Origin: a phage
Sequence record: PZ049713.1
DNA: 59,621 nt
Direction: 5' to 3' (one strand)
Under the pieces are notes generated by a model. The model made no database searches. It saw nothing but the letters and a program-made list of their open reading frames with translations, and was not told the DNA's origin. The number at the start of each line of letters is the position of its first letter. Positions within the stretch are counted from its first letter, which is position 1. Position numbers and translations under genes: made by a program. This document shows, piece by piece, positions 52,120-52,507 of this stretch.

Positions 52120-52381
52120 ACACCCATCGACGCAGCACACCGCGCCGACAGGCCGAGAGGCCTCGGGTGATCCCGAAATGCTCTTTATACAACTCGACGT
52201 GACCCAACGACGTACCGGCCAACCCGGTGGTGAGAAAGCTAAACCGTCGTCCATGCCAGCTCTGGAACTGGCCGTGGCTCCACATGCAGCCACGCGAAGT
52301 TGCGAAATGTCACCCGGTGCGACGCCAGTTGCGGCAGCGGGAAAGAGACGACTCAGACAAGGAATCGCAGCGGAGACAGGT

Positions 52382-52400
52382 AATTCGGAATTTCCGAATT
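52382..52400. promoter_or_regulatory. Perfect 19-bp palindrome in pL leader
   Basis: AATTCGGAA-T-TTCCGAATT. Confidence 0.5.
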
Positions 52401-52507
52401 ATCAGCCAAGCCCACCGTGGCAAGTAACGGAGGCTAGCAAGACAGAAGATTCCTCGGTGCGCCTCAAGTTGGGCGCATCAGGGGGAATCCACTGGAAGGA
52501 GTGAGTA

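Follow-up and report, generated by a model that had tools for sequence, protein, structure and literature searches.

A boxA-bearing, covariation-supported RNA leader behind the pL-type promoter of a lambda-like Pseudomonas prophage, a candidate for N-independent antitermination

We analyzed a phage DNA of 59,621 nucleotides (sequence record PZ049713.1; the window), which by gene content and gene order is a lambda-like prophage of the Pseudomonas type, and focused on the untranslated leader at 52120-52507 that separates the early-left promoter from its first gene. The leader carries a boxA directly behind promoter-proximal hairpins, followed by a large RNA structure with a pseudoknot that is supported by covariation among relatives, and it may serve as a cis-acting antitermination leader that does without a phage N protein. 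On the minus strand, CII-like, O-like, DnaC-like, NinB and RusA genes and then the late genes lie behind a cro-like gene. On the plus strand, the repressor gene is followed by accessory genes, a terminator, a pL-type promoter, the leader and the early-left operon (Table 1). Besides small genes of unknown function, this operon encodes an HNH endonuclease, an exonuclease and a Gam-like protein, and the early and recombination genes downstream of the leader span roughly 7 kb or more. A 14-bp operator, TTCAGCATGCTTAA, is present four times in the window, at 48868 and 48925 between cro and cI and at 52069 and 52103 at the promoter; with up to 3 mismatches on both strands, 10 matches were found versus 3.5 expected by chance. 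Because the cro/cI region and the promoter have these operators in common, the promoter is a genuine pL analogue and 52120-52507 is the leader of a repressor-controlled promoter. The assignment also fits the lambdoid gene order, with CII, O, DnaC, NinB and RusA genes on one side and exonuclease and Gam on the side of the leader. Thus, the long pL leader that an earlier note on this DNA had described from the letters alone is borne out by the promoter, the operators and the position of the first gene.

To place the leader among known phages, we relied on several searches. Distant BLASTN against isolated phages returned short matches in Pseudomonas phages PS-1, psageK9, MR13 and MR15, all at the same position, after cI, accessory genes, a terminator and a promoter; a segment of the upstream terminator, AGCCCGCCACTGAGCGGGCTTTTT, recurs before pL in psageK9 and MR15. 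An exact 19-mer of the core, TGCCAGCTCTGGAACTGGC, was found at 120 or more loci in IMG/VR and in 37 species-representative genomes, ~30 of them Pseudomonas or Stutzerimonas. A further 117 loci came from an independent anchor in domain 3 of the structure (see below). The core together with an upstream boxA is present in at least 237 loci, nearly all of them Pseudomonas phages or prophages. Note that the family counts (152, 202, 203, 237 loci and so on) were taken among the matches listed. A promoter-like site precedes the leader in 142 of 213 distinct relatives, with a median of 50 nt from its end to boxA. Rfam 15 had no family match in the leader, either at gathering thresholds on the window or at E values up to 10 on the region, the only matches nearby being weak ones of the upstream terminator to terminator-bearing models. 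Nor did Rfam match any leader module in 13 related loci, and full-text literature searches returned no description of such a leader. These comparisons indicate a large family of highly folded leader RNAs that is absent from Rfam and from the literature searched.

The leader RNA is about 382 nt long and untranslated, and its predicted fold is more stable than that of all 100 shuffled sequences (z = -3.0). The earlier note had seen no convincing open reading frame (ORF) here and had named a conserved protein-coding gene as the finding that would overturn its view. An ORF of 137 amino acids (52091-52504) does span the region, and its tblastn search matches 59 related loci, as a coding region or a small peptide might. 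However, the first codon of this ORF is the TTG of the -35 hexamer, which lies ahead of the transcript. Of 135 distinct related leaders, only 11 keep its frame open throughout, the other five frames being no worse, so that no reading frame is kept among relatives. Moreover, substitutions track base-pairing rather than codons, and the tblastn matches merely mirror DNA conservation. Coding is thus rejected by the frame analysis, and we give a protein product hardly any credence.

The 5' part of the leader has the layout of a ribosomal RNA (rrn) leader. Three small hairpins are followed 3 nt later by boxA, and the two adjacent hairpins at 52151-52176 occupy the position that boxB has in rrn leaders. 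Relatives keep the pairing of these hairpins with other sequences (GGCA/UGCC, UCGGC/GCCGG). By folding, two to three hairpins stand upstream of boxA in 169 of 202 distinct 5' modules; the distance from the last hairpin to boxA has a median of 3 nt and is exactly 3 nt in 119 of them. The E. coli rrn P2 leader, which we retrieved and folded, has the same layout of hairpin, 4 nt and boxA. The earlier note had placed a hairpin at 52150-52170. The stretch it pointed to, GGCCGAGAGGCCTCGG, is present at 52151-52166, but its CCGAG/CTCGG pairing is in the wrong register: both folding and the relatives reject CCGAG/CUCGG and back the two adjacent hairpins instead.

The boxA itself contains a near-consensus match, GCTCTTTATACAA, at 52180-52192. 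The gamma-proteobacterial boxA consensus is GYTCTTTAANA (PMC5725501), and 65 of 152 loci carry it perfectly. The shorter RYTCTTT lies upstream of the conserved 19-mer in 144 of these 152 loci, mostly 73-82 nt away and ~104 nt away in four that have an insert. A motif resembling UGGGAAC follows boxA in many relatives at a spacing unlike that of E. coli boxC; it is absent from the subtype to which the window belongs. The earlier note had suggested a nut-like antitermination site among other possibilities. As a general reading this remains the best one, but its basis is the boxA, which had gone unnoticed, and not the palindrome and hairpin that were named.

The covariance analysis across relatives that the earlier note had proposed was run and gave strong support for a structured RNA downstream of boxA. 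Its center is an H-type pseudoknot of two crossing stems, A and B, with hairpin C and an A-rich strand enclosed by stem B. In an alignment of the two stems and hairpin H1 (A2; 47 sequences), the crossing stems are 91-92% paired, and the three helices together are 92.9% paired, as against 31-39% when the partners are slid. Cells with changes on both sides number 207, compared to 66 ± 7.5 in shuffles, and compensatory changes are seen in 6 of 6 pairs of stem B and 6 of 6 pairs of H1. Note that stem A lacks a clear equivalent in the subtype of the window, GACGUGACC...AAGCUAAAC. The adjoining 23-mer contains hairpin D. The first search had fixed the sequence of this region, and hairpin D was therefore re-sampled through the independent domain 3 anchor. 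In that set, GCAGC/GCUGC replaces GCCAG/CUGGC in the stem, whereas the loop CUCUGGA is kept. Further downstream, domain 3 is a long irregular hairpin, for which an alignment of 68 sequences (A3) and the single-sequence fold agree. Each of the 6 pairs of its closing helix is changed on both sides in 8-26 sequences, and its apical loop GACGCCAGUUGC and internal loop GAGACGACUC are conserved in sequence. Thus, the structure of the leader RNA is real, with covariation in the pseudoknot, H1, hairpin D, the domain 3 helix and the terminal hairpin described below. The loops CUCUGGA, GACGCCAGU and GAGAYGAMUC are strongly conserved across phages that differ in immunity and in first genes.

Three further ideas about the leader RNA were dropped. 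Two possible tertiary pairings examined by eye, of the hairpin D loop CUCUGG with CAGAG in the internal loop and of the apical GCCAGU with ACUGGC, were abandoned because the partners are not kept together: relatives with the variant hairpin D lack the GCCAGU loop in their domain 3. The several GGA motifs had suggested a sponge for RsmA/CsrA, but most of them lie in stems or are not conserved.

Table 1. Features at the leader locus of PZ049713.1
Feature	Position	Strand	Remarks
Small cro-like gene	48839-48663	-	Opposite cI
CI-type repressor gene	48916-49590	+	phrog_4 match; faces the cro-like gene
Intrinsic terminator, strong	52032-52051 (or to 52056)	+	Ends the transcript of cI and the accessory ('moron') genes, just upstream of pL; terminator scan
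Operator TTCAGCATGCTTAA, two copies	52069-52082, 52103-52116		Flank the -35 and overlap the -10 of pL
pL-type promoter, sigma-70-like, TTGACC-17-TAAATT	52091-52119	+	Predicted start near 52126
5' hairpin P0	52127-52148	+	Single-sequence fold
Hairpin GGCC-GAGA-GGCC	52151-52162	+	Fold and relatives
Hairpin UCGGG-UGAU-CCCGA	52163-52176	+	Fold and relatives; adjoins the GGCC hairpin
boxA UGCUCUUUAUACAA	52179-52192	+	Single copy in the window; 3 nt after the hairpins
Pseudoknot core	52207-52250	+	H-type; alignment A2
Stem B, ACGACG/CGUCGU	52207-52212/52245-52250	+	Encloses hairpin C and the A-rich strand
Hairpin C	52213-52229	+	Inside stem B
A-rich strand	52230-52244	+	Inside stem B
Conserved 23-mer CCAUGCCAGCUCUGGAACUGGCC	52251-52273	+	Unique in the window; contains hairpin D
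Hairpin D	Stem 52255-52259/52268-52272; loop 52260-52267	+	Loop CUCUGGAA; covariation
Hairpin H1	52273-52294	+	Compensatory changes in all 6 pairs
Domain 3, long irregular hairpin	52299-52371	+	Alignment A3 and agreeing single-sequence fold
Domain 3 closing long-range helix	52299-52305/52365-52371	+	Covarying
Palindrome hairpin, optional	52379-52403	+	11 bp, UUU loop; fold z = -6.9
Optional hairpin module CAGCCAAGCCCACCGUGGCAAGUAACGGAGGCU	52405-52438	+	Fold; in 42 of 147 leaders
Terminal long hairpin	52448-52489	+	~17 bp, bulged; putative RNase III site; alignment A4
Shine-Dalgarno AAGGAG	52496-52501	+	Before the first early-left gene
First early-left gene	52508-52720	+	ATG at 52508; 70 amino acids; no PHROG match
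Truncated second copy of the terminal hairpin	52934-52966	+	Model R2: 17.4 bits, E 0.029, model positions 8-40

We next considered the 19-nt palindrome AATTCGGAATTTCCGAATT, which the earlier note had pointed out. It lies exactly at 52382-52400, is perfect (9+1+9) and unique in the window, and no match is expected there by chance. A DNA operator for a second regulator of the pL operon, as the earlier note had envisaged, might have such a form, and the apex GGA-W(1-3)-UCC does recur in several variants of the hairpin. However, at least seven other hairpins of unrelated sequence occupy the same site in relatives (for example GAACUGUCAAGGAAUCCUUGACAGUUC, GAACUAUGGCAAAUAUUGCCAGUGUUC, GGUCGCCGGGAUUUCCCGCCGACC and GCCGAAAGGC), in one close relative the palindrome hairpin itself differs by a G-U-compatible change (AAUUCGGGA/UUUCCGAAUU), and many relatives lack the module altogether. 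The palindrome also lies ~255 nt downstream of the start site, and no co-occurring regulator gene was found. Since hairpins of different sequence take its place in relatives, the palindrome is best regarded as an RNA stem-loop, neither a DNA operator nor the conserved heart of the element. The operator reading, already largely refuted by covariation, is very improbable. The earlier note had also made absence of the palindrome from relatives a test of its view: the RNA structure and covariation of the leader are kept, whereas the palindrome sequence is not, and many relatives are without it. The palindrome is a minor, optional and peripheral part of the leader. The hairpin module that follows is likewise optional. 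Variants have GGUG/CACC in place of its inner stem CCGU/ACGG, and leaders without this module, L172 for example, are also without the palindromic hairpin.

The leader closes with a long hairpin that ends 6 nt upstream of the Shine-Dalgarno sequence. It has 17 pairs and two bulges, with compensatory changes in 14 of the pairs (alignment A4) and a fold z of -4.9. About two helical turns, bulges and an untranslated or intergenic position are the form of an RNase III site, and the hairpin is probably one. A hammerhead-like CUGAUG...GAAA within it was discarded, as the core does not fit and Rfam gave no match. A covariance model of the hairpin (R2) detected two to three full copies on the same strand in the early-left operons of many relatives, 13 of which we recorded, mostly a few hundred nt and up to ~1.4 kb apart. 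In the window, a truncated copy is located after gene 52724..52930. By analogy, such repeats could be RNase III sites as in the early mRNA of phage T7 or recombination sites at cassette boundaries. Intergenic RNase III sites in the T7 early region precede successive early genes. Like these, the hairpin is a conserved, long, bulged structure without a U-tract that is repeated in the sense orientation before successive early genes; unlike them, it is unrelated in sequence and might instead mark recombination boundaries of gene cassettes. Two related loci (L235, L187) have the homologue of gene 53090..53368 immediately after the leader, and genes 52508-52930 may therefore have been inserted as a cassette.

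The leader occurs in varied surroundings. Promoters with a wide variety of operator sequences precede the core, the first genes after it fall into 79 clusters among 203 loci, and any given protein of the window accompanies it in at most 30 of 237 loci, which leaves no conserved phage protein as partner. The leader thus travels independently of immunity type and first gene. This independence of downstream gene, operator type and window proteins points to a host partner and to a function at the level of the operon. The leader is also modular within. Sister pL leaders, among them that of PS-1, share the 5' hairpins and the boxA, and usually also the terminal hairpin, but their middle 200-300 nt are swapped for at least three non-homologous, apparently structured RNAs. 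The apical loop GACGCCAGUAGC is reused in one non-homologous leader type, represented by three loci.

Comparison with known systems revealed likenesses of several kinds. In phage lambda, nutL lies ~200 nt upstream of N, and the RNA between them is highly structured and sensitive to RNase III (PMC5725501, citing Wilson 1997 and 2002). The present locus resembles that of lambda in its succession of cI, accessory genes, terminator and operator-controlled pL with a leader of >200 nt, and in a boxA near the 5' end that is followed by structured RNA and by a long hairpin before the Shine-Dalgarno sequence of the first gene. It differs in that the hairpins precede boxA (median 3 nt) and a pseudoknot follows it, whereas boxB follows boxA in lambda. 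Furthermore, the first gene is variable, and the structured part is larger, includes the pseudoknot and forms a conserved RNA family of its own. Among the components of a lambda-type nut site, boxA is present; a downstream boxB, a neighboring N-like gene and a nutR-like second site were not found in the window. None of the 17 proteins of the pL operon matched an antitermination protein, although N proteins are small and divergent, so that N is not proven absent. The rrn leader (boxB-boxA-boxC, with the rrnTAC complex of NusA/B/E/G, SuhB and S4) is similar in its consensus boxA 3-4 nt after a promoter-proximal hairpin and, after boxA, in structured RNA that is long and untranslated, with a long helix of a type that RNase III cuts. 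In contrast to it, the present leader is phage-borne, repressor-controlled and placed ahead of protein genes, and a boxC was not identified. On the best explanation, the leader would correspond, in Pseudomonas, to the nutL/N-leader of lambda, but follow the plan of the rRNA operons instead of that of lambda.

On these grounds we favor, with about an even chance of being right, a cis-acting and N-independent leader for Nus/boxA-type antitermination and protection against Rho. Transcription from pL would start near 52126 and produce two or three small hairpins, with boxA 3 nt later. The boxA would draw host NusB/NusE together with NusA, NusG and SuhB to RNA polymerase, which as a Nus-bound enzyme would become Rho-resistant, processive and tethered to the RNA. 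In this state, the complex would transcribe ~300 nt of untranslated RNA, comprising the pseudoknot, hairpin D, H1, domain 3, the optional hairpins and the terminal hairpin, and then proceed into the early and recombination genes. RNase III might cut the terminal hairpin, as in the lambda N-leader and at the early intergenic sites of T7, and thereby uncouple the leader from translation of the first gene. Such a scheme is consistent with what is known of Nus complexes, which protect long untranslated RNAs from Rho when assembled on boxA (PMC7665894) and tether and chaperone nascent RNA (PMC4807359). That no N-like protein was found, that the leader is independent of phage genes and that it is strongly conserved all point to a partner in the host.

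For the structured core, two roles can be envisaged: it may strengthen or stabilize the antitermination complex in place of phage N, in the manner of put or EAR RNAs, or it may simply need the boxA complex for its own transcription and folding. The put RNA binds the zinc-binding domain of the RNA polymerase β' subunit without additional factors and suppresses terminators, and the EAR element of Bacillus is a processive antiterminator consisting of RNA only. In phage HK022, put comprises ~70 nt forming two stem-loops at the 5' end of the pL transcript, without a boxA, and is present in two copies, putL and putR (PMC9378689). What links the leader to put (and EAR) is that the lambdoid early operon of an N-less phage opens with a structured and putatively cis-acting RNA, whose conservation independent of phage proteins suggests contact with the host transcription machinery. 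Unlike put, the leader measures ~380 nt, includes a boxA as well as an H-type pseudoknot, and is present once, with the core beginning ~70 nt into the transcript. We set the two apart by the published description of put; Rfam holds no model of it, and the HK022 record carries no put annotation. By analogy, the core may nevertheless act like put, though it lacks the features that define put. What is new here is the fusion of a pseudoknot RNA to an rrn-style boxA without N, boxA antitermination leaders themselves being already known. A bolder proposal, which we regard as possible but doubtful, is that the core represents a new class of functional phage RNA, either an RNA-only antiterminator unrelated to put and coupled to a boxA, or a non-coding RNA (ncRNA) unit resembling a miniature pre-rRNA. 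The latter would hijack the host complex for rRNA antitermination and chaperoning in order to fold, be released by RNase III and act on a conserved Pseudomonas factor. If so, the exchangeable middle modules of sister leaders would amount to a hidden repertoire of early-expressed ncRNA cargo in phages.

Several observations weigh against antitermination as the function. The boxA of the window is the consensus with a 1-nt insertion. Downstream of the leader, a simple scan of the plus strand found no strong intrinsic terminator; terminators that an antitermination complex has to pass would then be Rho-dependent or have escaped the scan. The pR operon has no second copy of the leader, unlike the nutL/nutR and putL/putR pairs: a pattern search found one boxA and one 23-mer in the window, and a covariance model of the core (R1) gave a single match of 97 bits, the next best scoring 9 bits. 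Since the middle is swapped for non-homologous RNA while boxA is kept, the middle domain may be cargo rather than part of an antitermination device. Finally, we infer Nus recruitment, antitermination and RNase III processing by analogy with the systems above.

The cargo argument also bears on the main alternative, that the leader is mainly an ncRNA gene, which would agree with the small RNA considered in the earlier note. The product would be an RNA of ~330 nt, made first from pL upon infection or induction and acting in trans. It would fold with the help of boxA and Nus factors like pre-16S rRNA, be cut free at the terminal hairpin and address a conserved host target as decoy, sponge, anti-defense or takeover RNA. 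The loops CUCUGGA, GACGCCAGU and GAGAYGAMUC, kept despite differing immunity and first genes, would agree with this, as would the missing phage protein partner, the non-homologous middle modules that behave as exchangeable cargo and the recurrence of the apical loop GACGCCAGUAGC in a non-homologous leader type. In addition, rrn-like boxA, structured RNA and long closing hairpin together mirror a pre-rRNA unit. However, the 3' end is not marked by a terminator or by a mapped processing site, and no complementarity to a target was found within the window. The terminal hairpin, being repeated between downstream genes, is moreover not specific to release of the leader. We consider a trans-acting RNA of this type unlikely.

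A sensor, either riboswitch-like or responsive to a protein, that tunes the early-left operon to a signal from the host, for instance through effects on pausing or on the access of Rho, has a lower probability still and appears improbable to us. The pseudoknot with its A-rich crossing strand, the invariant junction and loop nucleotides, the position in a 5' untranslated region and the independence of the downstream gene, as predicted for control of the whole operon, would be consistent with it. On the other hand, the leader shows no expression platform: an alternative pairing of terminator and antiterminator is absent, and the terminal hairpin does not sequester the Shine-Dalgarno sequence. 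A match to an Rfam riboswitch was not detected at E values up to 10, and a size of ~250 nt with a swappable, modular make-up is atypical.

Lambda-like Pseudomonas phages have Q-type late antiterminators. They are not known to encode a recognizable N protein, and N has been reported missing from a lambdoid phage of Pseudomonas (PMC7326022). The leader described here is a concrete and mutable candidate for how early operons of such N-less phages escape termination, combining a boxA in rrn layout with a covariation-supported pseudoknot RNA of ~250 nt in hundreds of Pseudomonas phages and prophages. With it, boxA/Nus-mediated antitermination could be tested directly in an N-less phage. It also represents a new structured-RNA family whose well-defined conserved loops can be probed for partners, and it illustrates the mosaic exchange of RNA modules within a phage leader. 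The putative promoter-proximal anti-Rho leader and the putative processing hairpins may also provide portable parts for synthetic biology in Pseudomonas.

Additional RNA elements were noted in and around the early-left operon. In some leaders, including nine that we recorded, a 3' module of >100 nt (GAAUCGAAUUAGCGCCCCGAGCCUCGGCUAUGAGGGGCGCCGGACCUCAUG...) stands instead of the terminal hairpin; it looks structured and had no Rfam match. Within the 160-nt gap before gene 53090..53368, the region 52967-53089 (plus strand) holds GGAUGAGGCGCAGAUGGCGGCUUGAUGAAUCA, which recurs before the first gene in related leaders, for example in locus L126, and thus represents another recurrent intergenic module. 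A Proteo-phage-1 RNA (Rfam RF03044) is located at 54390-54469 on the plus strand (70.2 bits; gathering score 42), in the same operon ~1.9 kb downstream of the leader. The related locus L005 carries it at the equivalent place (4522-4602). To our knowledge, this RNA has no assigned function. Locus L214 contains an int-alpA RNA (Rfam RF02996) at 12032-12097 on the plus strand (38.5 bits; gathering score 35.8), at the far end of the locus and presumably near the integrase end of the early-left operon.

The accessory block between cI and pL (49620-52010, plus strand) lies where lambda keeps rexAB. Gene 49620..50330 had no PHROG match, and gene 50952..52010 belongs to phrog_2384, with weak Ant-like similarity. 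The block has terminators of its own at 50344-50371 (minus strand) and 50496-50518 (plus strand). Homologues of the remaining gene, 50570..50911, are found just upstream of pL in 27 related loci.

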